This document shows positions 507-24,470 of a stretch of DNA of 64,000 bases, piece by piece; position 1 is the stretch's first letter, and every line of letters begins with the position of its first letter. Source of the DNA: Anaerohalosphaeraceae bacterium (GTDB taxonomy: Bacteria; Planctomycetota; Phycisphaerae; Sedimentisphaerales; Anaerohalosphaeraceae). The stretch is from the NCBI GenBank assembly GCA_050309605.1, contig JBNRMN010000033.1, positions 128,001-192,000 of the forward strand. The letters are read 5' to 3'. The notes below the pieces were generated by a model, which saw nothing but the letters and a program-made list of their open reading frames with translations, searched no databases and was not told the origin of the DNA. Made by a program: the position numbers and the translations under genes.

Positions 507-2354
507 ATGGAACAGTCGGTAAAGTTGTATGCTCGCAGGTTGGTCTTACTGTGCGTTCTGTCGGTGTTGTGCTCAGGGTGCCGGTCCGGCAGCGTCCCCT
601 CCAAACCGTTGACGGCCTATGATGCGCAGGCCAAAGCCCTGCTGGCCCGGATGACGCTGGACGAAAAAATCGGCCAGATGATTCAGGCTGAAAGCGACGG
701 TTTGGTCGATCCGGCGGATGTGCAAACCTATTATCTCGGCTCGATTCTCAGCGGGGGCAACGCCGATCCGAAGGAAGGCAACAGCCTTCAGGCGTGGACG
801 GATATGTACGACAGCTTTCAGGCCCGAGCGATGTCAACCCGACTGGCAATTCCTATCTTATACGGCATCGATGCGGTGCACGGCCATAACAACGTCCTCG
901 GCGCGGTAATTTTCCCCCACAACATCGGCCTGGGCTGTACCCGGGATGCAAAACTGGTTGAGGAAATTGCGCGTATTACCGCCAAAGAAGTCCGTGCGAC
1001 GGGCATTCAATGGACGTTTGCTCCCTGCATCACTGTTCCGCGGGACGAGCGATGGGGCCGCACGTACGAAGGATTTTCGGAAGACCCGACGCTGGTATCG
1101 CTTCTTGGTGCGGCGTCCGTTCGCGGGTTTCAGGGGACGGACCTGAGCGATCCGCTGGCGCTGCTGGCATGCGCCAAACATTACGTCGGCGACGGCGGCA
1201 CATTGCCGGGAACCGGCGACAAAGGAGGCTGGGATCAGGGCGATACCCGGCTGGACGAAGCCGAACTGCGACGGATTCATTTGGCGCCGTATATTCCTGC
1301 GATTAAGGCAGGCGTCGGCTCCATCATGCCCTCGTACAGCAGTTGGAACGGCGTAAAATCCTCCGGGAGCAAATACCTCCTGACCACGGTACTCAAGGAA
1401 GAACTGGGATTCGATGGTTTTCTGATCTCCGACTATAACGCGATTAAACAGGTTCATCCGGACTTCAAAACCGCCATCGGGATATCGATCAACGCCGGAA
1501 TGGATATGGCGATGGAACCGACGCAGTATCGTACCTTCTTTAGGCACTTAAAGGCGCTGGTCGAAGAAGGGACTGTTTCCATGTTGCGAATCGACGACGC
1601 CGTAACTCGGATTCTCCGGGTCAAATTCGCAATGGGGCTGATGGACCCAGACCGGCCGCAACTGGCCGACAGGAGCCTGCACGCATCCTTCGGCTCGGAC
1701 GAACACCGACAAGTCGCGCGCCGGGCGGTACGCAAATCGCTGGTGCTGCTCAAAAACGACCGCAGCACACTGCCGCTGTCAAAAACCGCCCGGAGGATAC
1801 ATCTGGCCGGCAAGAGCGCCGATGACATCGGCAATCAATGCGGCGGCTGGACGATTGCCTGGCAGGGCAAGAGCGGCACAGTCACCCCGGGCGGCACGAC
1901 CATCCTGCAGGCCGTCAGGAATACCGTCTCAAAAGATACACAAGTAACGTTCAGCGAAGACGGCTCCGGCGTCGCGGGGGCCAACGCCGCCGTGGTGGTC
2001 ATCGGTGAGAAACCGTACGCGGAAATGGACGGCGACACCGGCGATTTGTCGTTGTCAGAAAAAGACCGTGAGGTGATCCGCACGGTTCGACAGGCGGGGA
2101 TTCCTACGGTGGTCATTCTGATCTCAGGACGCCCGATGATACTGGGCGATGCGCTGGAGCAGGCCGATGCCTTTATCGCCGCCTGGCTGCCGGGGACAGA
2201 AGGGCAAGGGATTGCCGACATCCTCTTCGGCGACGATAAGCCGACCGGCAAGCTCTCGTTTACCTGGCCGCGTTCCAATTCGCAAATTCCCATCAACGTC
2301 GGCGACGCGGACTATGACCCGCTGTTTCCTTTTGGATTCGGTCTGACATATTGA
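507..2354 (+). CDS. Glycoside hydrolase family 3 beta-glucosidase/exo-glucanase, probable lipoprotein
   Basis: [32 protein letters not shown] and GFLISDY GH3 motifs; lipobox-like LCSGC; ATG at 507 after AAGGA. Confidence 0.92.
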
Positions 2355-2449
2355 ACGCTTCAAAGTGACCACCGGTCAGGCCAATGAAGGCAAACAGCCG
2401 GCGGATCAGTTGGGACGCTCACCCCCCCCACTGTCCCTATTTAAGAGTG

Positions 2450-3400
2450 TCAATAATCGATGGTGTCTCGGTCCAGGCCGATGTCGGCAGCGACGGCCGA
2501 GTGGGTGATCGCGCCGATGGCGATGCGGTCCACGCCGCAACTGGCGACGGTCAGGACGTTGTTGAGCGTAATGCCGCCGCTGGCTTCGAGCAGGGGGCGC
2601 TTGCCGCACATCTCATTGCGCATCTCGACGGCGTGCTTGAGCTGCCACTGGCCCATATTGTCCAGCAAAATCACATCGATGCCCGGAATCTTGAGCACGC
2701 GATCCAACTGGTTGTCCACGTGATCGACCTCAACAACGACCCAATTGACGCCGTGCTGTTCGCGGGCTTCTTTGATCATCCGCGACAGTCGCGGCACAAA
2801 GCGCCGCCCCAGCTCGGCGATATGGTTGTCCTTGAACATCACCGCCTCGCCCAGATTCATCCGATGGTTGTAGCCGCCGCCGCAGCGGACGGCGTATTTT
2901 TCCAGCTCGCGCCAGCCGGGGATGGTCTTGCGTGTGTCGTATATTTTCGCCCTGGTGCCGCGGGTGGCGCTGACAAATTTCCATGTCATCGTGCTGATGC
3001 CGCACAGCCGCTGCAGAAAATTCAGCACGACCCGCTCGGCGCTGAGCATGGGGCGCAGCGGCCCTTCAATCACCCCCAGCCGCTGGGCGACGCTGGCGCG
3101 GCAGCCGTCTTCAACAAAGGGCTTGAGCGTGAGCCTTGGATCGTAGCGTTTGAAAATTTCAGCGGCGATCTCCATCCCGCAGACGACGATTTCTTCGCGC
3201 GACACCAGCGACGCCCTGGCGAATTCGTTGGCGCCGACGGTGATCTCGCTGGTCGGGTCGCCTTTGCCGAAATCTTCACGGATCGCCAGCTCGATCAGCG
3301 GCGTGACGTGTTTCATATCCGGTTTTTTGAGCCGTCCGGTATAGACAGCATCAAGTCGTTTTGTTTTTTTTCTTGCCGTTTTCTTTCGGGTCTTTTTCAT
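2450..3400 (-). CDS. nadC: Nicotinate-nucleotide pyrophosphorylase (quinolinate phosphoribosyltransferase)
   Basis: [23 protein letters not shown]...KDNH, ILLDN and EASGGIT motifs. Confidence 0.95.
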
Positions 3401-5454
3401 TGCGGTCTGCTTTTTCGGTTTTTGCCGCGGCGGTCGCTTGCGGCGTTTGCCGTGTTGTTCTTGTTTTGGGCGTTTTCCAGTTGCGGCATTGCCTTCAGTT
3501 CGGCCAGCCGGTCGCGCAGCGCCGCGGCCTTTTCAAACTCCAATGCCTCGGCCGCGGCCAGCATCGCCTTTTCCAGCTCGGCCATCAGTTCCGTGCGGTC
3601 AAATTCCGTCTCGTCCAACTGAATCGCTTCCTGAGCACGTTTGCGGGCTTTGAAGGTATCGGACAGACCCCGCTGAATCTCCTTGCGGACAGTTTGCGGG
3701 GTGATGCCGTGCCGGGCGTTATACGCCAATTGAATTGTACGCCGTCGATTCGTTTCGTCAATGGTATTTTTGATGGCCTCTGTCATTCGGTCGGCGTACA
3801 GAATCACCTTGGCGTTGACATTGCGAGCGGTCCGCCCGATGGTCTGAATCAGCGACGTTTCGCTTCGCAAAAAGCCCTCCTTGTCGGCGTCCAGGATCGC
3901 CACCAGCGACACTTCCGGCAAATCCAGCCCCTCGCGCAGCAGGTTAATGCCCACCAGCACGTCAAACTCCCCCTCGCGAAGATTCCGGAGGATATCGACC
4001 CGCTGAAGCGTCTCGATTTCGCTGTGCAGATAACGGCAGCGAATGCCTTTGCTCGTCAGGTAGCCGGACAAATCCTCGGCCAGCCGCTTGGTCAGCGTGG
4101 TCACCAGCACCCGCTCGCCGGCGGCAATACGCTGCTGGATTTCGTCCATCAGGTGCGGAATCTGCTCGGAGGCCGGGTGCACGAAGATTTCCGGATCGAC
4201 CAGGCCGGTTGGGCGGATAATCTGCTCAACGACCTCGCCGTCGCACAAGTCCAGTTCGAACGGGCCGGGTGTGGCCGAGACAAAGATGACTTGTTTCCAG
4301 CGCTGCTGAAATTCTTCAAACCGCAGCGGGCGGTTATCCAGTGCACTGGGCAAGCGAAAGCCGTGTTCGACCAGCACTTCCTTACGCCGCCGGTCGCCGG
4401 CCCACATCGCCCGAAGCTGCGGAATTGTCACATGCGATTCATCGATAAACAGCAAAAAATCATCGGGAAAGTAGTCAATCAGCGTAAACGGCCGCGCGCC
4501 GGGCTTGAGGCCGGCCATATGGCGGGCGTAGTTTTCAATCCCGCTGCAATAGCCCACTTCGCGAATCATCTCCAGATCGTACCGCGTGCGGGCCTCCAGC
4601 CGCTGGGCCTCGAGCAGCTTGCCTTCGTGGCGAAGCTGAAGCAGCCTTTCTTCCAGTTCCTGTTCGATGCCCGTACAGGCCGATTCGATGCGATCGGCCG
4701 GCAGGATGTAATGTTTGGCCGGATAGATGAAGACCTGTTCTTCTTCGGCCAGCACCTCACCGCTGACCGGATGGATGTAGGCGATGGCCTCGATCTCGTC
4801 GCCGAAGAACGAAAACCGCACGGCAAAACTCTCATAGGACGGCCACAGCTCCACCACATCACCCCGCACGCGAAATGTGCCGCGGGCAAAGTCGATGTCG
4901 TTGCGGTCGTACTGCAGGTCGGCAAATCGCCCCAGCAGTTCGTTGCGATCCGTCTGGTCGCCCACGCGCACGCCGATGACGCTGGCCTCATAGTCTTCCG
5001 GACTGCCCAGCCCGAAGATGCACGACACGCTGGCCACGACCACCGCATCGCGTCGGCTCAGCAGGCTGGTCGTGGTCGAAAGCCGCAGCCGATCCAGCTC
5101 GTCGTTGCGCGAGGCGTCTTTTTCGATGTAGATGTCCCGCTGGGGGATGTATGCTTCGGGCTGGTAGTAGTCGTAGTAGCTGACAAAATATTCGACGGCG
5201 TTTTGTGGAAACAATTCGCGAAATTCCTCGAAAAGCTGGGCCGCCAGTGTCTTGTTGTGCGAGATGACCAGTGCGGGCTTGCCCACCCGCGCAATGACAT
5301 TGGCCATCGTAAACGTCTTGCCGCTGCCGGTGACCCCCAGCAGCGTCTGATACCGCCTGCCATGCACAACGCCCGATGTCAGCTTCTCTATCGCCGCCGG
5401 CTGATCGCCCCGCGGCTGGAACGCACTGTGTATTGTAAACTCGGATTTGCCCAT
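3397..5454 (-). CDS. uvrB: Excinuclease ABC subunit B
   Basis: [44 protein letters not shown]-terminal UVR domain; start taken at MGKSEF (5454). Confidence 0.97.
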
Positions 5455-5617
5455 AAGCAACTTATCATACCACGACTGGTCGCTGGTTTCAACTGGCAGC
5501 TTCAAAAGCCAGACGTACCGAGTCTTGTTTTTCGTGCAAAAAAACGGCTTTACGGTTGCGGCGTCGTCTGCTATACTCCCGCGAAACAATAAAGCACGAC
5601 AATTCGGAGAGTTTCGA

Positions 5618-6100
5618 ATGCATGACATTATGCCGATTTCACAGACCGGTTATGACAAGCTGAAAGAAGAACTGAGCGAACTGGAAAAGGAGGCCGTCCA
5701 GGTGCGCCAGCGCGTCGCCGAGGCCCGCGAGCAGGGCGACTTGAAAGAAAACGGCGAATACATTTACGGCCGCCAGCAGCTCGGCTTTATCGAGGGGCGA
5801 CTGGCCGAGATCCGCGGCAAGCTCAACTTTTCCAAGGTGGTCGATTGCAGGCAGGTCTCCTGTGATCGGGCCGATTTCGGTACGACGGTTACGCTGCGCA
5901 ATCTGGACAATCAACAGACGGTGGTCTATCACCTGCTCGGGCCGTATGACGCTGATGTTGTTGACAACGGTATCTCCATCAAATCCCCCGTCGGCGAGTC
6001 GCTGCTCGGCCTGACCCCCGGCGAAAAAGTCGAAGTCAATGTTCCCCGCGGCCTGATTCAGTTTGAACTGCTTGACGTCAAAACAGCCGATTTTAGCTGA
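5618..6100 (+). CDS. greA: Transcription elongation factor GreA
   Basis: [13 protein letters not shown] and [17 protein letters not shown] upstream of ATG 5618. Confidence 0.9.
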
Positions 6101-6235: not shown

Positions 6236-6973
6236 ATGAAAAGCACGGCAGTGATCATTTGTGCGGCCGGGGCGGGCACGCGGTTCGGCGGCGACCGAAA
6301 AAAGCCGTTTATCGAGGTCAGCGGGCGGGCGGCGTTTCTGCGGAGCGTCGAGTTTTTTTCCGACCGCGACGAGGTCAAACAGATTCTGCTGGCCATCAGC
6401 CCGGACGACGAAGAGCTGGTTACCGTCAAATGGGGGGCGATGCTCGGCTTTCACGGCGTCAAGCTGTGTTTCGGCGGCAGGGAACGCTTCGAGACCGTTG
6501 CCAATGCGCTCGAGAAAATCGGCGACGAGATCGAACTCATTGCCGTGCACGATGCGGTGCGGTGCTGTCTGACGAATGAGTGGGTGGACGCGGTGTTTGC
6601 CAAAGCCGCCGAGACGGGGGCGGCGATTCTGGCCTGTCCGGTGGTCGCAACGCTCAAACAAGTCCAAGACGGCAACATCGTCAAAACCGTCCGGCGCGAC
6701 AATCTCTACGAGGCCCAGACGCCGCAGGTGTTCGAGGCCGCACTGCTTCGACGGGCGTACGCCAATCTGAAGCACCTTGACCGCGCCGCGGTGACCGACG
6801 ATGCCCAGTTGGTTGAGGCACTGGGCCGGCCGGTGGCGATTGTCGAAACCGACCACTCCAACCTGAAGATCACTCGAAAAAACGATGTGCCCGTTGCCGA
6901 GGCCATCATCAAAAGCCGTCCCAAACCCAAACCCGACGGCCCTATCGGCCCCTATTTCGAGGCGCAGTGGTAA
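6236..6973 (+). CDS. ispD: 2-C-methyl-D-erythritol 4-phosphate cytidylyltransferase
   Basis: AAGAGTRFG...K, VHDAVR, QTPQVF, TDDA, NLKIT. Confidence 0.93.
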   Translation: MKSTAVIICAAGAGTRFGGDRKKPFIEVSGRAAFLRSVEFFSDRDEVKQILLAISPDDEELVTVKWGAMLGFHGVKLCFGGRERFETVANALEKIGDEIELIAVHDAVRCCLTNEWVDAVFAKAAETGAAILACPVVATLKQVQDGNIVKTVRRDNLYEAQTPQVFEAALLRRAYANLKHLDRAAVTDDAQLVEALGRPVAIVETDHSNLKITRKNDVPVAEAIIKSRPKPKPDGPIGPYFEAQW

Positions 6974-7043
6974 CCGGACGGCCGCATCAAATTTTGCGCC
7001 CAAATGTTGACAAAAATGATGGCCTCCCGGTCTGCGGCAAGGC

Positions 7044-8183
7044 CTAAAAACCGGCGCCTTCAGCCGGCTGAGCCTGAGGCTCTTTTTCTTCCGGTGCGTC
7101 CAGCTCTTGTTCAATCTCCGGCGTTGACTGAACCGGCTCAAGGCCAAGCAGACTGACCATTGCGTTCTGTTTGAATTGGAACATCACCGGCCTCATCCCG
7201 TCGGGAACTTTGAAGGCCACATCCACCCACAGCATCCGTTCCCGCATTCCCAGTGTATCGTCAGGCTCGATCACGTCGTCCAGCCCCTTTGCGACGAACT
7301 GCTTGCCTTCCGTCGGGCGATTCGGATTTCGGTATTGCAGCAATCCGGCCGGCAGGATCGCCTCGCCGACGCCCCGCAGATGATCCGCTTCGCCTGTCGG
7401 TTTACAGATCAGTCGAAGCTGAGCCATCCCGAATTTGATTTGGCCGGCGGCGTTGTTGGCGCCGCCGTCCGGGATGCTTTTGGAGACGATGCCGATCCGC
7501 ACGACCGTATAGTTTCCTTTTTCCGGAACGGACCAGAGGCGTATCGGCTTTTTGTCTCGGGGCGGCAGCGACAGACATTTGCGCGAGGCAATGGATTGCA
7601 CATCTTTCTGGATATAATATCGATTGAGGTGGATTTTGTTCAAAAAGTCAGTCTGTACCACGGCAAAACTGGTATCAGACGCCAGTGCACCCCGACTAAG
7701 CCAACTGAACAGCCCAGTAACAAAACCGTCGGCGTTCACGACCGGCAACTGGGGATTGGTCAGAATAATTTGCCGGTCGGCCGGAAATCGGCTGTAAATG
7801 ACTTTGTGCTGAACCGGCATTAACCCCATCGATACCAGAAGATTGCCCGCGATGATCACGCCGGTGATCAGTCCGCAGATCAGCGATGCGGCGACGCGCG
7901 CGTGTTTGCCCAGGTCGATGCTGCTTCCGACCAGCAAATCCGCCAACGCGCGAAACAGGGCCGAGCCGAGAATAAAGGCCAACACATAGCAGCCGGACAG
8001 CGCCCAATCCGCGCCATAGCCGCGCGAGATGAACAAATCCGCCATCGCTTCGTGATAGCTGAACGCAATCACGGTGGCAAAGATCGCCGCAACCAATGTG
8101 GAAAACGAGGTCATCAGCGAACACTTCAGATAAAAATGAATCACCGTCAGAACAATAATCAGCAGTATAATGGCCGTGGTCAT
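7044..8183 (-). CDS. Membrane protein, CvpA-like N-terminal TM bundle plus soluble C-terminal domain
   Basis: About four hydrophobic helices in the first ~120 aa; same strand and close spacing with the ATPase genes. Confidence 0.6.
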   Translation of the reverse strand: MTTAIILLIIVLTVIHFYLKCSLMTSFSTLVAAIFATVIAFSYHEAMADLFISRGYGADWALSGCYVLAFILGSALFRALADLLVGSSIDLGKHARVAASLICGLITGVIIAGNLLVSMGLMPVQHKVIYSRFPADRQIILTNPQLPVVNADGFVTGLFSWLSRGALASDTSFAVVQTDFLNKIHLNRYYIQKDVQSIASRKCLSLPPRDKKPIRLWSVPEKGNYTVVRIGIVSKSIPDGGANNAAGQIKFGMAQLRLICKPTGEADHLRGVGEAILPAGLLQYRNPNRPTEGKQFVAKGLDDVIEPDDTLGMRERMLWVDVAFKVPDGMRPVMFQFKQNAMVSLLGLEPVQSTPEIEQELDAPEEKEPQAQPAEGAGF

Positions 8184-8207
8184 TGAACACCCCTTGAACC
8201 GTCAGGA

Positions 8208-9848
8208 TTAAGATTTTGTCGAAAAATTCCGAATGACTTCGTTGATGGACGTGACTCCCATCGTCACCTTCTTAATGGATTGCTCCTGCATATAGAGCAT
8301 GCCCGCCTTGCGGAAGGCGGTGGCAATTTCCTGGGGCGACTTGGCGTTTTTAATCACCTCGCGCAAGTCATCGGTGATGCGAATGGTCTCAAACATCCCC
8401 GTGCGTCCGAAAAAGCCGGTGCCCTGGCATTTTTCGCAGACAATCGGTTTTCCGTGTTTGTCGTATTCGATTTCGCCGGGACGATAAAACATTCCCACTT
8501 CGTTGGCGGGTATATTGAATTTTTTGAACAGGGCCTGATTGGGCTGATAGGGTTGACGGCAGTCCGGACACAGGGTGCGCACCAGCCGCTGATTGAGGAT
8601 GGCCGTCAGCGTCTCGGCCACGAGGGCCTTGTCGCCGACCAGCTTCAGCCATTTTTCAATGGTTTGACTGACGCTTGACGCATCCAGTGTGGCGTAAACG
8701 ATGCGTCCGTCTTTGGCCGCGGCGCACGCCAGTTTGGCGCACTGGGCGTCCTCGCATTCTTCAATACCGACGATGTCAGGACCTCGCCGAAGCAATGTCT
8801 GAAACCGGCGGGAATACGTCGTGGTGCCGGTGTCGGTCATGGTAAAGACATTTTGCGTAATATTCTGCAGCTCGGCCGCGGGTGTTTTTTCAAGGGTATT
8901 GATGTTGTTCAGAAACGGGTCATGGTTGCCCAGCAGCGTATAAAGGGTGGTGGTTTTTCCGCTTTTGGGTGTCCCCGAAACAATGATGAGGCCGCCGCCT
9001 TCCAAGTCGCGCAGCGAACGAATCGATTCAAACTGATTTTCGTTGAGTCCCAGATCGTCGAGTTTGCGTGAAACCAACTCGGAAATCCGCTCCAGTCGGA
9101 CTTGTTCGCCGGCGGTTGACCCGGAGGTATTGACCTGCCATTCGGTCTTTAATTCTTTGTCTTTGATGGCTTTGAAACGGCCCTGCTGGGGTTTGCGTTT
9201 TTCTTCCACTTCCAGGCCGGCAAGCTGTTTGACGTAGTAAATAAAATTGTCTATTTCCTCTTTGGTTCGAGCCGGCTGCTTCATCGGAATGCCGTCGATC
9301 AGATAGACCACTGCATACTCGTCTTTCTGAGGGATGAGGCTGATCTCATCGGCGCGCCGCCAGATGGCATCGTCGAGAATCTCGCAGGTCAGCACGAACC
9401 CTTCCGCTTCGCGTGTTTTCGGCGCGGGCAGCGGCACTTCATTTTTATTGCCGGTCACAAAGGATATTCCCTGACTGAGTTTTTCGAGTTTTTTAGTCTC
9501 GTCAACCAGAAGTCCTTTGAGGTGTTCGGGTGTCAGTACCCGCTCAAAATCCGAGACGCGGGCGTTTCGGTGCACCACATACGCCACGGTGACCGACCCG
9601 ACACTGAGCAGATACAGCAGGAATCCGATAAGGAACGCCGGAATCAGCATCCATACCAGCAATGCGATGGCGCCGATGGCTGCGATGCCCGCCGTCCAGG
9701 CCTGTTTGTTGGTCCGCACGGCCTGTGAGTCGGTATGTACCCAGTTGACCAGCGGCATCCATCCGAAAAACGCCGCGGCCATCAGCACGCCTTTCCATGC
9801 TTCGATATACCCTCCGATATCCGAACCTGTTGCCAGCATACCACTCAT
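8208..9848 (-). CDS. GspE/PilB-family secretion ATPase-like protein with N-terminal TM helices and degenerate catalytic motifs
   Basis: Walker A GTPKSGKTTTLY, NQRLVRTLCPDC...CEKCQGTGFFGRTGMFE Zn motif, GVTSINEVIR; Walker B and His boxes altered. Confidence 0.85.
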   Translation of the reverse strand: MSGMLATGSDIGGYIEAWKGVLMAAAFFGWMPLVNWVHTDSQAVRTNKQAWTAGIAAIGAIALLVWMLIPAFLIGFLLYLLSVGSVTVAYVVHRNARVSDFERVLTPEHLKGLLVDETKKLEKLSQGISFVTGNKNEVPLPAPKTREAEGFVLTCEILDDAIWRRADEISLIPQKDEYAVVYLIDGIPMKQPARTKEEIDNFIYYVKQLAGLEVEEKRKPQQGRFKAIKDKELKTEWQVNTSGSTAGEQVRLERISELVSRKLDDLGLNENQFESIRSLRDLEGGGLIIVSGTPKSGKTTTLYTLLGNHDPFLNNINTLEKTPAAELQNITQNVFTMTDTGTTTYSRRFQTLLRRGPDIVGIEECEDAQCAKLACAAAKDGRIVYATLDASSVSQTIEKWLKLVGDKALVAETLTAILNQRLVRTLCPDCRQPYQPNQALFKKFNIPANEVGMFYRPGEIEYDKHGKPIVCEKCQGTGFFGRTGMFETIRITDDLREVIKNAKSPQEIATAFRKAGMLYMQEQSIKKVTMGVTSINEVIRNFSTKS

Positions 9849-15215: not shown

Positions 15216-15384
15216 GCCTTTCCACTATCCCATTCCCGAACAATTGCTGCGCCCGCTGTGCGGCTTGTGCGGCCTCTTTCCTGTGCGGCGTTCCGCGCCG
15301 CCTGCCTTGCTCAAATCGATTGAACGAATGTGGTATCTATAATGTGAATTATTTTTGAAATTCACCTTTTTTGCGGAGAATAAT

Positions 15385-17103
15385 ATGATTAAAAACAAAA
15401 CAACCCCTCAAGACGGCATCGTCTATAAACCCGGAAGCCAGGTGATGGTCGATATGCTTTTGGAGCAAGGCGTCGAAGTGATGTTCGGCTATCTGGGCGG
15501 GGTGGTGCTGCCGTTTTTTGATAAGCTGTATGATGCGCCGATCAAGTTCATCATCCCCCGCCATGAGCAGGGCGGCTGTCATATGGCTGATGCGTATGCC
15601 CGCGCGACGGGCAAGGTCGGCGTGGTGGTGGCCACCTCCGGCCCGGGCGCGACCAATCTGACGACGGGGCTGGCCACGGCGATGATGGACTCGGTGCCCC
15701 TGGTCGCCATCACGGGGCAGGTGCGGACCGACCTGATCGGAAACGACGCCTTTCAGGAGGCCGATACCACCGGCATCACCCGACCGGTGACCAAGCATAA
15801 TGTCATCGTCAAAGATCCCAACGAGCTGGCCCAGGCGATCCGTGAGGCGTTCTATATTGCTCAAACCGGACGTCCGGGGCCGGTTTTAGTGGATGTGCCG
15901 GTCAATATGCAGATTGCGCAATGTCCGATCCCGCCCAAAAGCGAAATTGAACTGCCGGGGTACAAAGTGCGCTATCAGGGACATTCCCGTCAGATCGCCA
16001 ACGCGGCCCGGGCCATCAATGAATCCAAAAAGCCGGTGCTGTATATCGGCGGCGGGGTCATTCTCTCCGGTGCGTCCGACGCCCTGCGGCAGTTTGCCCA
16101 AAAGGCCAATATCCCCGTTACGATGACGCTGATGGGGCTGGGCGCCTACGATCAGGCGCGGCCTGAATCGCTGGATATGCTGGGCATGCACGGCTCGGCG
16201 TACGCCAATTATGCGGTGCAGAATTGCGATTTGCTGATTTCGGTCGGGGCGCGGTTTGATGACCGTGTGACCGGTTCGCTGAAGACCTTTGCGCCGCATG
16301 CCAAAATCATTCATATTGACATGGATCCGGCCAGTATATCCAAAAACGTGAATGTGGATATTCCGGTCGTCGGCGACGCCCGCGAGGTACTCGAAGCCAT
16401 GATGACCATGGTGGAGTATCGGCCGCGCAAAGAGTGGTTCGAGCAGATCGCCTCCTGGAAGGCCAAGCACCCGTTCCGTTACGATCGCAGCGCCGAGGTC
16501 ATCAAACCGCAGTATGTGATTGAAGAGCTGCACCGTCAAACGCAGGGCAACGCCGTGATCTGCACCGGCGTCGGCCAGCACCAGATGTGGGCGGCGCAGT
16601 TCTACAAATTCAACCATCCGCGGCAGTTGATCACGTCCGGCGGACTGGGGACAATGGGCTTTGGTCTGCCGGCGGCCATCGGCGCCAAATTGGGCTGCCC
16701 CGACCAGACGGTCATCGACATTGACGGCGACAGCAGCTTTAATATGACGCTGACCGAGCTTTCCACGGCCGTCATGTACGACCTGCCGATCAAGGTCTGC
16801 CTGCTCAATAACGGCTTTATGGGGATGGTGCGCCAGTGGCAGGAGCTGTTTTACGGCCGGCGCTATTCGCAGAGCTGCCTTCAGAATCCGGATTTTGCAC
16901 GACTGGCCGAGGCGTTCGGGGTTGTCGGCATCACCGTCGATAAAAAAGACCAGGTGCCTGCGGCAATCGAAAAGATGCTCGAAGAAACCCGTCCGGTCGT
17001 GGTTGATTTTCATGTGGATCCGGAAGAAAACGTCTGGCCGATGGTCCCGGCCGGCAAGAGTCTGCACGAAATGGACGGGCTGGACATTTTTGAAATGGCG
17101 TAA
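15385..17103 (+). CDS. ilvB: Acetolactate synthase large subunit
   Basis: RHEQGG, TSGPGATN, GRPGPVLVD, GARFDDRVTG, SGGLGTMGFG, GDSSFNM, NNGFMGMVRQWQ. Confidence 0.96.
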   Translation: MIKNKTTPQDGIVYKPGSQVMVDMLLEQGVEVMFGYLGGVVLPFFDKLYDAPIKFIIPRHEQGGCHMADAYARATGKVGVVVATSGPGATNLTTGLATAMMDSVPLVAITGQVRTDLIGNDAFQEADTTGITRPVTKHNVIVKDPNELAQAIREAFYIAQTGRPGPVLVDVPVNMQIAQCPIPPKSEIELPGYKVRYQGHSRQIANAARAINESKKPVLYIGGGVILSGASDALRQFAQKANIPVTMTLMGLGAYDQARPESLDMLGMHGSAYANYAVQNCDLLISVGARFDDRVTGSLKTFAPHAKIIHIDMDPASISKNVNVDIPVVGDAREVLEAMMTMVEYRPRKEWFEQIASWKAKHPFRYDRSAEVIKPQYVIEELHRQTQGNAVICTGVGQHQMWAAQFYKFNHPRQLITSGGLGTMGFGLPAAIGAKLGCPDQTVIDIDGDSSFNMTLTELSTAVMYDLPIKVCLLNNGFMGMVRQWQELFYGRRYSQSCLQNPDFARLAEAFGVVGITVDKKDQVPAAIEKMLEETRPVVVDFHVDPEENVWPMVPAGKSLHEMDGLDIFEMA

Positions 17104-17210: not shown

Positions 17211-17705
17211 ATGAAGCATATACTGAGTGCATTGGTGTTAAACAAGCCCGGCGTTCTGGCACACGTGGCGGGGATGTTTGCCGCACGGGCTTTTAATATT
17301 GATTCGCTGGCGGTCGGCCGCACCGACGATCCGACCCTGAGCCGAATGACCATCGTGGTCATTGGCGATGACAAAGTCGTCGAGCAGGTTCGCAAACAAT
17401 TGGCCAAAATCGTGCCGGTGGTCAAGGTGCAGGACTTTATCGGCCAGGATGTCGTCGCGCGCGACCTGATGCTGATCAGTGTGACGTGTCCACCTGAAAA
17501 AAGGCCGGAAATGATGGCTTTAATTGAGATGTTTAACGGAAAAGTTGTGGATATTGCCCAAAAAATCGTTATGGTAGAAATTGCCGGTCCGGAAAGTAAG
17601 ATCGAGGCCTTTATCGACGCCTGCCGACCCTACGGCATCAAAAGTATGGTTCGCACCGGCACCGTCGCCATGGCCCGCCAGACACGGACCAAAACCGAGG
17701 AATAG
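17211..17705 (+). CDS. ilvN: Acetolactate synthase small subunit
   Basis: ACT domain NKPGVL...FNIDSLAVG...SRMTIV, VRTGTVAM. Confidence 0.95.
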   Translation: MKHILSALVLNKPGVLAHVAGMFAARAFNIDSLAVGRTDDPTLSRMTIVVIGDDKVVEQVRKQLAKIVPVVKVQDFIGQDVVARDLMLISVTCPPEKRPEMMALIEMFNGKVVDIAQKIVMVEIAGPESKIEAFIDACRPYGIKSMVRTGTVAMARQTRTKTEE

Positions 17706-17812
17706 CCATATAACAGATTAGCGAAATTTTCTGAGTTAATTTTATAAAATATCGAGAGATTTATGATATAGTCAAAAGTGAATAATCTGAAAGTCTGCTG
17801 GACTTAGGCGTT

Positions 17813-17940
17813 GCAACCGAAACCTGCAAATTTTAAACCGCAAACGTCAAGCCAGTGCCCCAAACAGGGGCGCTGTCGGCGTGTTGCGGTAAGGCCTTGC
17901 AGGGCCTCGGTTGCGCATGTTTCGGCGGTGCCTCTTTTTT
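17813..17940 (+). promoter_or_regulatory. Structured RNA leader with two mutually exclusive folds, one ending in a U-tract
   Basis: Rod GCAACCGA/TCGGTTGC, CCTGCAA/TTGCAGG, ACCGCAA/TTGCGGT, CAGTGCCCC/GGGGCGCTG; alternative 13-bp stem 17866-78/17923-35 followed by Ts. Confidence 0.6.
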
Positions 17941-18005
17941 ACGGGGATGGCTCGTGAAAGGAGGGTCAAAATAGGAAAAATCTATTTTGAAAGGAGAGCA
18001 GAAAA

Positions 18006-20816
18006 ATGAAAGAAAGAGTTATTTTTGCATCAAAACATAGTTTCTCTTTGTTAGTTTGGGGCATCTTTTACTTTTGCGGAACGGCGTCTGCTGAATACGA
18101 CTTAGTGCTGACAGGTGTGAATCAGTTTTCAGGTACAGTTTCATACTCTAACAAACTAATTTACATCCCCGAAGATGCATTTGTTCAATATGAAACTTTA
18201 GTGTTGGACAATTGCATTGTTGATGTGGATGGTTTTCTTGAGATCAATACGTTTTTAGATATGCACAACTCCGTTTTCTTTGTTTACGGAAGCTTTAGAG
18301 TAAAACAGGGTGCAACTATCTACAAAACAGGCACATCAAGTATCATCATAACAGGAGACTCTGTACGGTCAGGACATATTTTTATGAAAGGCGGTTTGTA
18401 TGATCCGATCGTCATTGAATCAGACTACACGTCGACAGAATTTATTGTTATTGAGGAAGCTTCCTCGGCGAACTCCGTTTTGCAGTTCATTGATTTTTTC
18501 GGTGGATGGTGCAATATACAGATATATAATAATCGCTTGAATAATGCGATAACCAACTGTCGATTCATTGAATCTGACTACCCAGTTTATCAAGAATCAT
18601 ACGATAAAATAACAGGTGTGCGATTCTGTTTCTTTTTTTGGAATATCATCTCGGTTTATGCCCAAGTGAATGATACCGCTCAAGAGGAAATCGCTTTTAA
18701 GTTTGACAATTTGACAATTGATAACAACTTTGAACCGTCATCATACGGTGTGGTATTGTCTTGTTTGCAAAATCCGGCCTATATTGATTTGGTAGGGATT
18801 ACCAATAACATCCTCACAAACAGTTATTGTGGCTGGTATATTGGTGATGGGGGGTTTTATCCGCCTATAATGTCGAATCTTGCTTACTACGGCAATTACT
18901 TCGATTGCAACTTGGCCGATCCAAATTTTCAGTCTAATCCAATGTATTTAATTGAAAACCCATTCGAAACACCCACAGACCCAAACGATTGGCCGTATTA
19001 TGTTGACCCGAACAGCCCGGTTGCCACCGCAGAGTTAAGAGAAAGCATTTTGCAAAGTCCACAACAAATGCTGACTTCAATATTCAGCGCACCTGTTCCA
19101 CGAGGAAACTTTGGGATTGGATATGGCGTTGCATTGCCTCAAGATTATTATTCAGAAATCGCCGTTGAGATGAGGGGGGATTTTGATAACAATGGAATCG
19201 TTAATTTTGACGATTACTTGATACTCTCGATGGATTGGCTGGCTGAACGAGAATCTCAAGAAAACCCTGTCAATTTTCCGGATCCGAATGGTTACTCTTT
19301 TGCAGACTTTGATTTAGATGGCATTGTGGATGTTAACGACCTCAATCTTTTTGCCAAGAATTGGCTCTGTACTGGAGCCAGGCAAATACGACTGCATGTC
19401 GAAGATACGCCGAATCGTCTGGTTGTTACCTGTAAAGATCCGAATCTTGTGGATGTTGATCATTTTGCCATCTTCTTGGATGAGGAACATGTGGCGACCA
19501 GAGAACCGCAAGACAATGCTGTTTTTATTATTGACAAAAGAAACTTTAAAAATGGAGACCACCAACTCAGAGCTGTTGCTCTCGGTCAGGATGGGAACGC
19601 CTCCGCCACAGCACCGGTTACCTATTCATTTAGCACCCCACTGAGCAACATCACATACGAAAAGTTTCCTGACCCTTCAAAGCCCTTTATTATCAGGGGA
19701 AACATTGCAGAAGGAAACACCGCATTTTTATCTATAAAAGATATTGACGAACAAGTTCAATGGTCTAAAGATTACACCGAGGATTTTGTGACAATCATTG
19801 ATCCCAATGATATATTTGGCAACAATGATGTGAATCTGGAACTTACATACTCTTGCGTACCAACACTTCTGGTAGAATTGAGCCAGGAATCTCCATTCGA
19901 TGAAGTCTTCGAAGAACTGATTAACGCATCATCGGGAAGCTCATCCATTTTAGCACTCGGAGGTAAACCCATAAATGCCGTAGCAGGCCTAGTTATTTGT
20001 ATGTTGGCGGATGGGGCAACACAAGGTGCAAACTATACAGACACAGGAACCGCCAGATTTGCATGGCAAACAATGAAAAACAAAGGCATACAGGTCATAG
20101 CACTTAAGGGATATGGCGAACATAATCAAGTATCATACGATATAATTCACAGTGTCCGAAGAAAGTTTCCAAATATTCGATACCTGCATATCAACGCACA
20201 TGGGCATTACAGGGCAAGAAAAGCATGGTCGTTGTTGAGAACTCCGCGAACTCGCGTTTTATTTAATGATGGGATTTGGGTATCTCACAATTCCAGAAGG
20301 TGGCTTGACCGAAATCGATCTGTACCAGAAGGCTATCAATATCTATCACGTTCTTTAGAAAAGGCTTATACATTTGATCACTTTGGATTTCGTCCCGGAG
20401 ACATTCGAATACTGGTGCTTGAATCCTGTTACGGCCTTCGCAATGTGGCAACAATGAATGCTGAATTGATCGTTGACTATGTAGACGGGGCTTATGATTA
20501 TGAAAAAAGTTTTAATCCGCCTCTTAATTTTCACCCACATTACTATTTTACCGATGTATTATTTGCTTTCAGAATGGTCGAAGATTATCAAGTGGCCGTT
20601 GGTTCAGCAAATTTGGTTGTTAAAGGATTGTTTACTCATTATGCAAATTTTTTCAATATGTTGTATCAAAATCTTGAGACTAAGAATTTCTATAATGCTT
20701 ATAGTGATACCGTATACCACATAACCAATCAAGAGGTAAAGAGTGAACATAGAGTACGCGGATTAGGCTTAAATCCGCAAAGCAATGTCTGGCTTAGCAA
20801 CAACCCAACCCCCTGA
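18006..20816 (+). CDS. Large secreted multidomain protein: beta-helix-like N-terminus, two dockerin-like repeats, Ig-like segment, C-terminal caspase/gingipain-like HG...SC domain
   Basis: Signal peptide ending ASA-E; RGDFDNNGIVNFDDYLILSMDWL and FADFDLDGIVDVNDLNLFAKNWL; YLHINAHGH and ILVLESCY; AAGGAG RBS. Confidence 0.7.
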   Translation: MKERVIFASKHSFSLLVWGIFYFCGTASAEYDLVLTGVNQFSGTVSYSNKLIYIPEDAFVQYETLVLDNCIVDVDGFLEINTFLDMHNSVFFVYGSFRVKQGATIYKTGTSSIIITGDSVRSGHIFMKGGLYDPIVIESDYTSTEFIVIEEASSANSVLQFIDFFGGWCNIQIYNNRLNNAITNCRFIESDYPVYQESYDKITGVRFCFFFWNIISVYAQVNDTAQEEIAFKFDNLTIDNNFEPSSYGVVLSCLQNPAYIDLVGITNNILTNSYCGWYIGDGGFYPPIMSNLAYYGNYFDCNLADPNFQSNPMYLIENPFETPTDPNDWPYYVDPNSPVATAELRESILQSPQQMLTSIFSAPVPRGNFGIGYGVALPQDYYSEIAVEMRGDFDNNGIVNFDDYLILSMDWLAERESQENPVNFPDPNGYSFADFDLDGIVDVNDLNLFAKNWLCTGARQIRLHVEDTPNRLVVTCKDPNLVDVDHFAIFLDEEHVATREPQDNAVFIIDKRNFKNGDHQLRAVALGQDGNASATAPVTYSFSTPLSNITYEKFPDPSKPFIIRGNIAEGNTAFLSIKDIDEQVQWSKDYTEDFVTIIDPNDIFGNNDVNLELTYSCVPTLLVELSQESPFDEVFEELINASSGSSSILALGGKPINAVAGLVICMLADGATQGANYTDTGTARFAWQTMKNKGIQVIALKGYGEHNQVSYDIIHSVRRKFPNIRYLHINAHGHYRARKAWSLLRTPRTRVLFNDGIWVSHNSRRWLDRNRSVPEGYQYLSRSLEKAYTFDHFGFRPGDIRILVLESCYGLRNVATMNAELIVDYVDGAYDYEKSFNPPLNFHPHYYFTDVLFAFRMVEDYQVAVGSANLVVKGLFTHYANFFNMLYQNLETKNFYNAYSDTVYHITNQEVKSEHRVRGLGLNPQSNVWLSNNPTP

Positions 20817-20831
20817 TCAGGAGATTGTGAA

Positions 20832-21689
20832 ATGAGACAATTTCAGGTCATTTTGCTATCATTGATATTGGTCACAACAGGCTGTTCGCGTGAACCTGAA
20901 TCGACAGGGCTGACTCGTGAAGTCCTCCTAACGCTGAATACTTCGAACGTGAGCAAGATTTGCATCACCTCCTTAAGCGAACGAGGGTTTCCATACCACT
21001 ATCATTTTTTAATTGATGCCCCCGAAAAGGTTGATATTTTCCTTCGCTGCATGCAGGAAGCGATACAAATAACTGACAACCGCCCCCCTGAAAAACCAAT
21101 ACGGGCAATCGCTTTCCATACGCAAAATGTGATATACCACACAGTAATTGGATGGGATGAGGATGTGGTTTATGGGCATTGGCACTGGCCGACGTACAGC
21201 GGCCGATGGGAATCGGCACAGTTGCGAGAGTATTTTCGACAATGGGATATTCAGCAAGCAATTGCAGACGCCGACCCGAATTATCCCTTTAGAGACCCGA
21301 GAGAGAGTCCTCATACCATGGTTCCATGGATCAGGATTAATGAACTGTTAATGGAACCTGCTGTGGAATTCACAAAAGAGACATTTTTGGTCTTGGATTT
21401 CTCAAAAGTACGGGAGGTGTGTTTTGTAGTCAATCAATCAAAACCAGATATGCAGGTCTTTCCCATCGAGAATGCTGAAAAAATAAAGGTGTTTTTAAGC
21501 TGTATAGAAAACGCTGAGTCAGTGAACCACGATAAGGAAAAGACCACCGATAAGGTCTATTTTGTCATTCAAGACACGCTCTTTTTTACCGGCATAGGCT
21601 GGAATGAGGAAACGGTCTATGGTGACTGGTGGAAATCGACAAAACTTTGGCATTATTTACGAGAATGGAAAGTGGTGCCGGAGAAATGA
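20832..21689 (+). CDS. Lipoprotein with two tandem copies of an unknown domain (candidate immunity protein)
   Basis: Lipobox TTGC; internal repeat IGWDEDVVYGHW...LREYFRQW / IGWNEETVYGDW...HYLREW. Confidence 0.75.
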   Translation: MRQFQVILLSLILVTTGCSREPESTGLTREVLLTLNTSNVSKICITSLSERGFPYHYHFLIDAPEKVDIFLRCMQEAIQITDNRPPEKPIRAIAFHTQNVIYHTVIGWDEDVVYGHWHWPTYSGRWESAQLREYFRQWDIQQAIADADPNYPFRDPRESPHTMVPWIRINELLMEPAVEFTKETFLVLDFSKVREVCFVVNQSKPDMQVFPIENAEKIKVFLSCIENAESVNHDKEKTTDKVYFVIQDTLFFTGIGWNEETVYGDWWKSTKLWHYLREWKVVPEK

Positions 21690-21770
21690 ACAAGCTGCTG
21701 ATACCACTGCTGATTCCATTTGGCGATGATGATCTGTTCACGCAAACCTAAGAAACAGACTTGACGCCGT
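21686..21770 (+). pseudogene. Degenerate 5' remnant of a third paralogous lipoprotein gene
   Basis: ATG overlaps the previous stop; MNKLLIPLLIP, then CSRKPKK in another frame, matching CSREPES of 20832..21689. Confidence 0.4.
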
Positions 21771-21834
21771 AATCAAATTTACACAGTATAAGACTTACCA
21801 AGTTGGACAATTAATACAAGAAAGGAGTCATAAA

Positions 21835-22398
21835 ATGTATAAGATAACGATCTGCTTAACGATGTTAATGATTACGGGTTCTGGATGTAGGGAAACGCCC
21901 CCTGAAATCGGGATAACGAGAGACAATTTTTCCTATATAAAAAAATCCAGTATAGGTGAAATCGAAATACTCTCGGCGGCGTTTACGCCCGGCGGTATGC
22001 CGTACCATTACCGGTTTTCAATTTTTGATCCGCGAAAGATCCGCCTTATTCTTGAATGTATGCAAAACGCAAAACCGATAGACGAAAATGAACAGCTTGA
22101 TGCCGATTTGAAAAAGAACAACAGATTGCTCATTGTTAAGACTCAAAGGGCACATTACTCGACTAAGATCACTTGGAATGATGATTTCGTGTACGGGACT
22201 TGGGATATGTTGGCCGTTGAAAATTGGTCGTGGAAATCATCAGAGATGAGGGAGTATTTTAGAAAATGGAATCTTATCGAAGAAATTTCCGCTGCCGATC
22301 CCCAATGGCCTGATCCTGATTGGATGACCACACCGCCGCCGGATTCAGATTCAAGTCTGCCTCCCCTTGACTTTCAAAACATAGAGTCAAAACGCTAA
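21835..22398 (+). CDS. Lipoprotein, single-domain paralog of 20832..21689 (candidate immunity protein)
   Basis: Lipobox GSGC; shares PYHY.F.I, CMQ.A, W.DD.VYG.W, REYFR.W and ADP..P. Confidence 0.75.
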   Translation: MYKITICLTMLMITGSGCRETPPEIGITRDNFSYIKKSSIGEIEILSAAFTPGGMPYHYRFSIFDPRKIRLILECMQNAKPIDENEQLDADLKKNNRLLIVKTQRAHYSTKITWNDDFVYGTWDMLAVENWSWKSSEMREYFRKWNLIEEISAADPQWPDPDWMTTPPPDSDSSLPPLDFQNIESKR

Positions 22399-22644
22399 AC
22401 GCCGAGCAAAAGAGCAAACAGACAAGAAATTGAGGCATTCTACCACGGCATAGCGAGTATGTCTATCCGATTTTGTAATTTTTGTCGATACGGGGGAAAA
22501 TCCGAGTGTTTTATTATCGTCTGTTTTTTTGCATCCTTCGGCATTTAAGAAAATAAAAGTTGATAACTCCTCTTTTTTGTTGTATCGTACAATATAAGCA
22601 AGAAAGAGAACATAATTGATATTTAATGCAAGGAAATTTGTAAG

Positions 22645-23646
22645 ATGGCAACACTTTTTTATGAACAGGATGCTCCGCTTGATGCGCTGAAAGGCAAGAA
22701 GGTTTGTGTGATTGGCTACGGCAGCCAGGGACATGCTCACAGTCAGAATCTGCGCGACAGCGGCATCGAGGTGGCGGTGGCCGAGCTGGAAGGCACGGCC
22801 AACTACAAGTTGGCTCAGGAACACGGTTTTTCGCCGACCCTTATTGCTCAAGCGATGGATGGGGCGACGCTGATCATTATCACCCTGCCCGATGAGGTTC
22901 AGGCCAAGGTGTACGAATCGGACATCAAGCCCAACCTCAAGCCCGGCCAGGTGCTGGGATTTTGCCACGGCTTTAACGTGCATTTCGGGTATATCAAGCC
23001 GCCCGAAGGCGTCGGTGTGGTGATGATTGCGCCCAAGGGGCCGGGGCATCTGGTCCGCAGCGAATACGAAAAAGGCGGCGGCGTGCCCTGTCTGGTGGCG
23101 GTGCACACCGACGGCGACGGCAACGCCAAGCCGGTCGCACTGGCCTGGGCCAATGGCATCGGCGGCGCACGGGCCGGCATCATTGAGACGACCTTCAAGG
23201 AAGAGACCGAAACCGATCTGTTCGGCGAACAGGTCGTTTTGTGCGGCGGGCTGACCGCGCTGATCAAGGCCGGCTTTGAAACGCTCGTCGAGGCCGGCTA
23301 CCAGCCGGAGATCGCGTATTTCGAATGTATGCACGAGGTCAAACTCATCGTCGATCTGATGTATCAGGGCGGTATGAGTTATATGAGATACAGCATCTCC
23401 AATACAGCCGAATACGGCGATCTGACCCGCGGGACGCGGATCATCACCGAACAGACCAAAGCCGAGATGAAAAAAATCCTCAGCGAGATTACCAGCGGCC
23501 AGTTTGCCAAAGAATGGGTCGCCGAATATCAAAGCGGATTAAAGAATTTTAACGCGCTGTACGATAAAGATCACGGCTGTCAGCTTGAGGTGGTCGGACG
23601 CAAGCTGCGCAAAATGATGAAGTGGATCAACGCCAAGGAAGTCTAA
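22645..23646 (+). CDS. ilvC: Ketol-acid reductoisomerase
   Basis: [45 protein letters not shown]. Confidence 0.97.
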
Positions 23647-23735: not shown

Positions 23736-24470
23736 ATGAACACGAAGATTGCGTGTGGAATTTTTGCCGCGGCGGCCATGATGCTGGCCGGTTGTGCTCG
23801 TCCGCTGACCACGTATGAACACGTTTATGAGCGGTACTACGCCACCACCATCGGCCTGAGCACCTCGGCCGATGTGCTGGAGATTCTCAACAATCGAGGC
23901 CACGAACTGCTCAGCCAGAGCGAAAGCGTTGTCGCGGCCTGGGGCAAGGAAGGCCAGCGCGACCGGACGCACTGGTTCAATATGGTGGCCTTTGATCAGA
24001 ACAGCGCGGTGGCCGTGCGCAAGTACGGCTTTATTCTGGAAGAAACGGCCGTCGGGCCGAATCGTCAGCCGCGACCGGGACTGCGTTTTGACGCCGAGCT
24101 GGTTCTGGACCCTGAAACGCTCAATGAACCGTATGCCAACGCCAACGAAATGCGGATCGCGGTGCTGCGCGCGATTGCCGCGCATTTCAGCCGCGACAGC
24201 CAGGAAGTCCGCCATGACAGCGCCACCCTGCGCAACAGCAGCGCGATGGTCAATCAGGCCTTGAACAATGCACTGATCAAACTCGTCCAGTCCCCGGCCG
24301 AAGCCGCACAGCTCGGCAATCCGGAAGGGATGATGTTTGACCATATGACGCTCGGTCAAAGCCATATTCGCATGCTGATTCAGGGGGATCTGGTCAAGCT
24401 CAAGATCAAGGCCGGCAAGCCCTGGTTCAATGTGCCGTTTGAAGAGCATCCCGATGTGATTTATATGTAA
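23736..24470 (+). CDS. Hypothetical lipoprotein
   Basis: Lipobox LAGC; AGGAG RBS; followed by a terminator. Confidence 0.75.
   Translation: MNTKIACGIFAAAAMMLAGCARPLTTYEHVYERYYATTIGLSTSADVLEILNNRGHELLSQSESVVAAWGKEGQRDRTHWFNMVAFDQNSAVAVRKYGFILEETAVGPNRQPRPGLRFDAELVLDPETLNEPYANANEMRIAVLRAIAAHFSRDSQEVRHDSATLRNSSAMVNQALNNALIKLVQSPAEAAQLGNPEGMMFDHMTLGQSHIRMLIQGDLVKLKIKAGKPWFNVPFEEHPDVIYM

Follow-up and report, generated by a model that had tools for sequence, protein, structure and literature searches.

The window analysed here, a stretch of 64,000 nt from an Anaerohalosphaeraceae bacterium (contig JBNRMN010000033.1; all coordinates are positions within this window), carries between the genes ilvN and ilvC an AT-rich block with three open reading frames (ORFs) on the same strand, 18006..20816, 20832..21689 and 21835..22398, all +. 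The first encodes P0001, a large protein ending in a cysteine peptidase-like domain with a predicted clan CD fold, and the other two encode the paralogous lipoproteins P0002 (lipoprotein A) and P0003 (lipoprotein B). The structural model and the sequence comparisons give good support for assigning the domain to a previously unnamed sequence family within clan CD, with an intact His-Gly ... Glu-x-Cys centre. The pairing of this protease with a lipoprotein is obligate, a conclusion that is well supported by the related loci. The interpretation favoured here, for which the balance of probabilities is about even, is that of an exported protease effector with a lipoprotein immunity protein or inhibitor, diversified by replacement of 3' ends as in contact-dependent inhibition (CDI) and Rhs loci. 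The three ORFs, including that of the 936-residue protein, are exactly those described in an initial annotation of this DNA, which had proposed a polymorphic toxin-immunity system.

The large protein and its clan CD peptidase-like domain

The peptidase-like domain and its predicted catalytic residues are encoded as follows.

18006..20816, + strand: large exported protein P0001, 936 residues (ORF; co-linear homologs)
19923..20813, + strand: clan CD (caspase/CHAT/gingipain fold) cysteine peptidase-like domain, residues 640-936 (AlphaFold2 model and structure searches)
20199..20204, + strand: codons of His732-Gly733, predicted catalytic His (directly after model strand 85-91)
20421..20429, + strand: codons of Glu806-Ser807-Cys808, predicted catalytic Cys with an acidic residue at -2 (directly after model strand 163-167)

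The AlphaFold2 model of the C-terminal 297 residues, based on an alignment of 22 sequences, has a predicted local distance difference test score (pLDDT) of 90.5 and a predicted template modelling score of 0.90. When the model is compared with 48,161 chains using VIA-align, the best 32 rows are all clan CD proteins, with Z-scores from 14.6 to 8.2. The best row is SAVED-CHAT (8tl0_A, Z 14.6, root-mean-square deviation 2.6 over 174 residues), and further rows include the gingipain RgpB (4ief_B, Z 11.9), legumain (4aw9_A, Z 11.8), GSU0716 (Z 11.6), glycosylphosphatidylinositol (GPI) transamidase (Z 11.5) and an asparaginyl ligase (Z 11.3). A Foldseek search of the PDB gives CHAT, MALT1, caspases, metacaspases and legumain as leading matches, with a best E-value of 2.9e-4. 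The clan CD fold that the initial annotation had suspected for the tip of P0001 is thus recovered in the model by both structure searches.

The two motifs on which that suspicion was founded are present where they had been placed, YLHINAHGH from residue 726 (nt 20181) and ILVLESCY from residue 802 (nt 20409). The His-Gly pair and the Cys are invariant in both alignment A1 (14/14 sequences) and alignment A2 (22/22 sequences of the peptidase domain), and they lie at the ends of two strands of the model, separated by an inserted β-hairpin. According to an excerpt of PMC4357240, the clan CD catalytic dyad occupies the C-terminal ends of strands β3 and β4, and the placement of His732 and Cys808 after two strands corresponds to this layout. 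Glu806 is invariant in alignments A2 and A4 and almost so in A1; in distant relatives HG is retained and the Cys motif reads D-[ASC]-C, with Asp at the Glu806 position. An acidic residue two positions before the Cys is a feature of the Arg/Lys-specific metacaspases and paracaspases, and by analogy the acid two positions before Cys808 hints, weakly, that the P0001 domain may prefer a basic (Arg/Lys) P1 residue. The same excerpt counts Asp211 of TbMCA2 among the S1 residues (PMC4357240).

Sequence-based searches do not recover this relationship. A Pfam search matched a clan CD family in none of the 22 members at E-values up to 10, and neither CHAT (PF12770) nor Peptidase_C14, C13, C25 or C11 was matched in P0001. 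The peptidase domain is likewise unmatched in NCBIfam, a PDB sequence-profile search with A2 gave 0 matches, and hhalign of A2 against five CHAT domains of the same order found nothing (probability 0.6%). A profile search of 1.84 billion representatives retrieved only 27 proteins with the peptidase domain at E-values up to 0.001.

P0001 consists of a signal peptide, a β-helix-like region, a dockerin-like module, a middle region and the clan CD domain. The regions upstream of the latter are the following.

18006..18092, + strand: Sec-type signal peptide, residues 1-29 (...GTASA|EY; inspection of the sequence)
18093..19145, + strand: Asn/Ile-rich region, residues ~30-380 (Atlas look-alikes)
19176..19349, + strand: dockerin-like double Ca-binding repeat, residues 391-448 (Pfam PF00404, weak)
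19350..19922, + strand: middle region, residues 449-639, ending in a Ser/Gly linker (conserved in alignment A1)

Residues ~30-380 probably form a right-handed parallel β-helix, as their language-model (Atlas) look-alikes belong to the Beta_helix/NosD families (0.92-0.94), which serve as a lead only. The two dockerin-like repeats noticed initially are visible as two DxDxDG loops at residues 392-403 and 434-445. The corresponding Pfam match to Dockerin_1 (PF00404; residues 391-448) has an E-value of 0.007 and 17 bits, under the cut-off of 22.9 bits, and three relatives exceed this cut-off (P0037, 29.3 bits; P0009, 25.2 bits; P0042, 24.2 bits). A PDB search with the full-length profile gave weak dockerin rows only (E 0.19-0.57), and the middle region matched no Pfam family. 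The weak dockerin match is the sole match of P0001 in Pfam and NCBIfam, where no two-partner secretion (TPS), Rhs, PAAR, LXG or similar delivery or pre-toxin domain was detected.

The genome that contains the window (G000) also encodes two distant paralogs of P0001, of 1031 and 1057 residues, with the motifs SHG/AHG and D-S-C / D-V-C (G000:C67, L083 2505-5600 and 5602-6153; G000:C80, L084 1567-4740, 4753-5247 and 5260-5772). One of them can be aligned co-linearly with P0001 over the dockerin and everything C-terminal to it (22% identity, E 3e-12). Downstream of each lies a gene for a small protein with an N-terminal membrane anchor; these two proteins belong to a different family and share 35% identity (E 2e-25).

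The lipoproteins and their pairing with the large protein

Downstream of the large gene the block contains two lipoprotein genes.

20832..21689, + strand: lipoprotein A, P0002, 285 residues, lipobox ...TTGC, two domain copies at residues 23-152 and 176-283 (ORF, hidden Markov model (HMM) domains, paralogy)
21835..22398, + strand: lipoprotein B, P0003, 187 residues, lipobox ...GSGC, one domain copy (ORF, HMM; AlphaFold2 pLDDT 80.9)

The paralogy of the lipoproteins, read initially from shared short motifs, is evident from direct comparison: against P0003, domain 1 of P0002 has 33% identity over 177 residues (E 3e-31), and for domain 2 the figures are 25% over 128 residues (E 1e-12). The first 61 residues of P0002 show 59% identity to the lipoprotein that follows the large gene of L014, the closest A-type homolog. 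The lipoboxes were read by inspection as ...LVTTGC in P0002 and ...ITGSGC in P0003. All 22 rows of alignment A3 have the lipobox Cys18; in alignment A5, whose 19 rows include the L035 form without it, the residue is at least 90% conserved. A few relatives (L035, G051) are without this Cys.

No family name can be attached to the lipoprotein domain, as the initial annotation had also found. Neither Pfam (P0002 and P0003 at E-values up to 0.1), NCBIfam nor PADLOC contains a match, and a PDB profile search with A3 returned chance-level rows only (E 0.4 or worse). A lipoprotein profile search of 5.8 billion clusters gave 19 proteins, all unnamed, and a word-index search with a single lipoprotein gave 2 relatives. 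The best PDB chains for the P0003 model are 4q0y, 2mct and 4r7r, at Z 7.0, 6.9 and 6.6 over 94-107 residues, with the next row at 4.4; a Z of about 7 is, by the structure-search tool's own note, the usual best score for models without a true match. Judged from this model, the domain is without a clear structural relative, and no cohesin-like match appeared in the structure search. An Atlas look-alike cluster of the lipoprotein carries DUF4883 (0.87), a lead only; DUF4883 (PF16224) was not matched by Pfam in P0002 or P0003 at E-values up to 0.1. The lipoproteins, predicted to be membrane-tethered, are built from this unnamed α/β domain of ~130 residues. The mean column identity is 27% for the lipoprotein vs 59% for the peptidase domain, which indicates that the lipoprotein evolves faster. 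The predicted complex of the peptidase domain with domain 1 of lipoprotein A has a score of 0.05 and a mark of 0.32, values that weigh neither for nor against binding.

The pairing itself was examined in 31 related loci, 10 from genomes and 21 from metagenomes, two of which end inside the large gene. In all 29 loci that extend past its stop codon (29/29), a lipoprotein of the same family begins within tens of bases after the stop, as anticipated in the initial annotation, which had asked for adjacent lipoproteins in homologs; at an identity of at least 95% these 29 loci form 22 clusters. The distribution of the module is patchy: a full-length homolog is present in 3/40 relatives and in 0/6 genomes of the same genus, and among 301 genomes of the order the peptidase profile matches 18 (11 strongly) and the lipoprotein profile 29.

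Several individual loci deserve mention. In L078 (G030:C55:58000-70000) a divergent full module lies on the minus strand (6424-9308 minus), with a large protein of 1041 residues and a weak lipoprotein match of 227 residues; it is located directly upstream of a C-terminal fragment and a lone lipoprotein gene, so that G030 holds two modules in tandem. L039 encodes, at 859-3957, a protein of 1033 residues with a Peptidase_C10 (streptopain-like) domain, a Spi inhibitor prodomain and a β-helix region, ~2 kb upstream of a homologous module, which could be a coincidence. In one lineage, represented by L022, L043 and L071 (e.g. L022 11101-11778), the large gene is intact and the lipoprotein gene behind it aligns to the profile as three overlapping segments (1-88, 36-143 and 145-175), which indicates frameshifts or a partial internal duplication.

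Insertion, replacement of 3' ends and retained lipoprotein genes

The block stands out from its surroundings by composition, in agreement with the AT-rich insert between ilvN and ilvC that had been described initially. The module has a GC content of 0.412 and the remaining window of 0.560; the GC content is 0.37-0.47 over 17750-22750 vs 0.58-0.62 in ilvB and ilvC. The flanks were assigned by Pfam as ilvB (15355..17103), ilvN (17211..17705) and ilvC (22645..23646). Five relatives were examined for the spacing of ilvN and ilvC, and in three of them it is short: ~35 nt in G001, which is of the same genus, 63 nt in G018 and 424 nt in G007. The low GC content and the short spacing in these relatives together identify the block as an insertion of ~4.9 kb, with the following borders.

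17706..18005, no strand: left border of the low-GC insert, region upstream of the large gene (the GC drop starts here; ilvN-ilvC spacing in relatives)
22399..22644, no strand: right border of the insert, to the start of ilvC (GC profile; ilvC by Pfam)

In the other two relatives, G002 and G003, ilvC is not found within 1.5 kb of ilvN, and they are therefore uninformative on the insertion. These same-genus loci (L050, G003:C55:10000-22000; L051, G002:C68:1-7400) have DNA of normal GC content downstream of ilvN, and since ilvC does not follow there, the ilvBN-ilvC linkage is not universal in the genus. Just past ilvC, the window contains at 23736-24470 an ORF of 244 residues with a lipoprotein-like N-terminus (…MLAGC) that belongs to no Pfam family and is unrelated to the cassette. 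A repeat scan revealed no direct or inverted repeats flanking the insert, and promoter and terminator scans of the locus gave no clear signals. In 12 related loci the pair is flanked by unrelated housekeeping genes, and no mobile-element genes (integrase, transposase) were seen in these flanks. The GC content of the module is below that of the flanks in 12/12 of these loci, as it is in the window.

Comparison of P0001 with its close homolog P0010 shows that the 3' part of the gene can be replaced. The two proteins are 83% identical overall. In a sliding window, however, the identity is 98-100% over most of residues 1-690, apart from two windows at residues 381-420 that dip to 70-75%, and thereafter it is 58%, falling to 20%. 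A second homolog, P0017, is a mosaic of P0013 and P0005. The initial annotation had called for a search for different C-terminal tips on the same N-terminus; the replacement is found in P0010, but the exchanged ends are subtypes of one peptidase family and not unrelated folds. The breakpoint and two remnants in the 146-nt gap between the window's lipoprotein genes are positioned as follows.

20073..20120, + strand: approximate recombination breakpoint vs P0010, residues ~690-705, inside the peptidase domain (sliding-window identity)
21686..21751, + strand: short ORF overlapping the stop of lipoprotein A, which with the next frame resembles the frame-shifted signal peptide and lipobox of a lost lipoprotein gene (three-frame translation, weak HMM match)
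21773..21814, + strand: remnant, last 12-13 codons and stop of a B-type peptidase C-terminus (tblastn vs the end of P0010)

The decayed remnant reported initially between the lipoprotein genes does exist (21686-21834), but its content differs from the first description, comprising a signal-peptide/lipobox piece followed by a P0010-like tail. The match of the former is weak (E 0.03 in a three-sequence search). In the latter, 10/12 residues encoded at 21776-21811 are identical to the very end of P0010, and the stop codon lies 20 nt before the P0003 gene; in a tblastn search of the whole window this is the second-best match after the true domain, with an E-value of 0.06. Most simply, this arrangement would have arisen when an A-type 3' end, together with lipoprotein A, was written over a B-type 3' end that had lipoprotein B behind it, with the tail and the older lipoprotein surviving. 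Lipoprotein B would then be the displaced partner of the B-type C-terminus.

Comparable arrangements occur elsewhere. The order in G258/L017 is large gene, lipoprotein, C-terminal fragment, lipoprotein and signal-peptide remnant; in the L018 group a C-terminal fragment follows the lipoprotein, and in G030 a C-terminal fragment of 79 residues precedes an intact lipoprotein gene. Lipoprotein genes are also present in genomes in which the peptidase profile found nothing, namely G058, with an intact gene for a 188-residue lipoprotein that is 70% identical to that of L031, and G051, with three lipoprotein genes in tandem. In the complete genome G043 a lone lipoprotein gene is present in two pieces ~1.5 kb apart (L082, G043:C1:496000-505000, at 3674-3862 and 5394-5666), which suggests an insertion into the gene. 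A 100-residue piece of the lipoprotein is recorded in the database as a hypothetical protein of Sedimentisphaera cyanobacteriorum.

Functional interpretation and comparison with known systems

In the interpretation favoured here, the block would be a horizontally acquired, self-contained cassette of two components. The first would be a Sec-exported multidomain protein ending in a clan CD cysteine peptidase domain of ~290 residues, and the second one or more membrane-tethered lipoproteins. The peptidase domain would most likely act as an extracellular or envelope effector (toxin), while the lipoproteins, sited in the compartment of the protease, would be the cognate immunity proteins or inhibitors. 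New specificities would arise when the 3' part of the peptidase domain and the lipoprotein gene are replaced jointly. In the window, an A-type C-terminus with lipoprotein A would have displaced a B-type C-terminus, of which the last 12-13 codons were left and lipoprotein B was retained. The toxin-immunity layout put forward initially is borne out as regards the pairing with a partner, the displaced 3' remnants and the lone lipoproteins, but not as regards delivery, since no known delivery domain was detected. Of the computational outcomes named in the initial annotation as contrary to its proposal (a tip without a peptidase fold, or homologs with invariant C-termini that lack adjacent lipoproteins), none was encountered.

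Several observations weigh against a toxin-immunity function. The same C-terminal peptidase family is found in all 14 word-index homologs, in the 31 loci and in the representatives with matching architecture, so that a swap between unrelated toxin folds is absent, and no known toxin-delivery or pre-toxin domain was detected by Pfam or NCBIfam. In L017 and L018 the C-terminal fragments share 82-83% identity with the end of the main gene at the same locus, and may thus have arisen by local duplication and not by heterologous displacement. The B-type tail match in the window comprises 12 residues only and has a window-wide E-value of 0.06. The lone lipoprotein genes could be leftovers of decay, and the copy in G043 is split. 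The lipoproteins of L017 and L032 are about as similar (67% identity) as the N-terminal parts (66%), whereas the peptidase domains share 49%. Over 231 locus pairs, the divergence of the lipoprotein correlates with that of the peptidase domain (rho 0.33) about as it does with that of the N-terminal part (rho 0.32); the distance correlations among the three (rho 0.33, 0.32 and 0.43) do not discriminate between the readings.

The strongest competing explanation, clearly less probable than a toxin-immunity pair and yet to be taken seriously, is a secreted degradative or processing protease for nutrition or surface remodelling, with the lipoprotein as a self-protective inhibitor that blocks premature activity in the producer's envelope. 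Secreted serralysin-type proteases have periplasmic inhibitors of this kind. The same fold and pairing evidence fits this explanation equally, and the failure of Pfam to reveal a delivery domain and the constant C-terminal family favour it; the resemblance of the N-terminus to carbohydrate-active β-helix proteins (a lead) points in the same direction, and the two distant paralogs in the same genome are consistent with a broader family of exported enzymes. A self-protective inhibitor does not, however, readily explain the intact lipoprotein genes where the peptidase profile found nothing (G058, and the three in tandem in G051), the 3' swaps with displaced remnants followed by retained lipoprotein genes, or the patchy distribution and the varied insertion sites.

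An improbable third explanation is a surface display pair under diversifying selection, in which the lipoprotein would anchor or receive the large protein, e.g. via the dockerin-like module; the mosaicism would then represent antigenic or phage-receptor variation and the 3' fragments silent cassettes. The dockerin-like module is indeed conserved, the mosaicism reaches the dockerin region (P0017 vs P0005, and the dip of P0010 at residues 381-420), and the L017/L032 lipoprotein tracks the N-terminal part. In contrast, the lipoprotein model has no cohesin-like match (its best rows, at Z 6.6-7.0, are three uncharacterised small proteins), genomes in which the peptidase domain of the large protein was not found can carry lone lipoproteins, and the strictly conserved catalytic centre argues for selection on enzymatic function. 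Very unlikely is a transpeptidase or self-processing peptidase with the lipoprotein as its substrate or acceptor, comparable to GPI transamidase, legumain-type ligases or toxin-releasing cysteine protease domains: although GPI transamidase (Z 11.5) and the asparaginyl ligase (Z 11.3) are among the best structural matches and caspase-like domains are often releasing peptidases in toxins (excerpt of PMC3482391), the domain sits at the very C-terminus with no cargo downstream, the lone lipoproteins and 3' swaps are left unexplained, and nothing specific points to ligation. A role in phage defence was dropped, as PADLOC gave no match and all three proteins are exported or lipid-anchored.

With a toxin-immunity function ranked first among these explanations, a wider proposal can be made, which is put forward tentatively and with somewhat less confidence than that function itself. 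Phycisphaerae of the order Sedimentisphaerales may possess lineage-specific, Sec-exported, dockerin-bearing interbacterial protease toxins, whose specificity is diversified by displacement of 3' cassettes within one unnamed clan CD family. A new lipoprotein family would provide immunity and would also be retained alone as an acquired defence in genomes without the protease, and a sister subfamily in the same genome would pair the same architecture with an unrelated membrane-anchored partner.

If this is correct, cassettes for antagonism of the CDI/Rhs type also occur in an anaerobic lineage of planctomycetes, for which a full-text literature search did not find a description of such cassettes. 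Clan CD would gain a protease family that escapes the present family libraries, and a family of lipoprotein immunity proteins or inhibitors without named relatives would be added. The window would then document a single replacement in legible form, in which an A-type end supplanted a B-type end and the earlier lipoprotein was retained, and a testable prediction of cross-immunity follows from it. It would also provide a functional context for the many dockerin-like modules in secreted proteins of planctomycetes.

The P0001 domain shares with the clan CD families (caspase, metacaspase, paracaspase, gingipain C25, legumain C13 and CHAT) the fold, the His-Gly after one strand and the Cys after the next, and the acidic residue two positions before the Cys. 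Unlike these families, it is undetected by Pfam and NCBIfam models and contains the extra β-hairpin between the His and Cys strands. Unlike in the gingipains, the peptidase domain of P0001 is C-terminal, and neither a prodomain nor a C-terminal domain of the type IX secretion system was detected. For the lipoprotein domain, the best structural neighbours (4q0y, 2mct and 4r7r) are small uncharacterised lipoprotein-like structures of no known function.

In the nuclease colicin and pyocin families and their immunity proteins, specificities have diversified although the toxins keep one fold, and the cognate gene is a neighbour; the cassette would resemble them in both respects. Colicins and pyocins of this type possess receptor and translocation domains and have cytoplasmic immunity proteins, whereas the candidate toxin of the cassette would be a protease, its partners are lipoproteins and its N-terminal architecture is unrelated.

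The closest parallels are found in CdiA-CT/CdiI and Rhs-CT/RhsI. As in these systems, a constant N-terminus is combined with a replaced 3' end and the partner gene follows directly downstream, 3' fragments are followed by extra partner genes, and lone partner genes occur in other genomes. Displaced orphan cdiA-CT/cdiI modules are described in an excerpt of PMC4927057, and caspase-like C-terminal toxin domains (Tox-Caspase, Zhang et al. 2012), some with proposed export via Sec and the type II secretion system, in one of PMC3482391. In contrast to polymorphic toxins, a single C-terminal family is present throughout, the breakpoint is located inside the candidate toxin domain of P0001 and not at a pre-toxin motif, and no TPS, Rhs, PAAR, LXG or other delivery module was detected. 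The partners also differ from those of the surveyed polymorphic toxins, where lipoprotein immunity partners are called exceptional, with Imm65 as the only case given in the excerpt (PMC3482391), whereas in the cassette the partners are lipoproteins.

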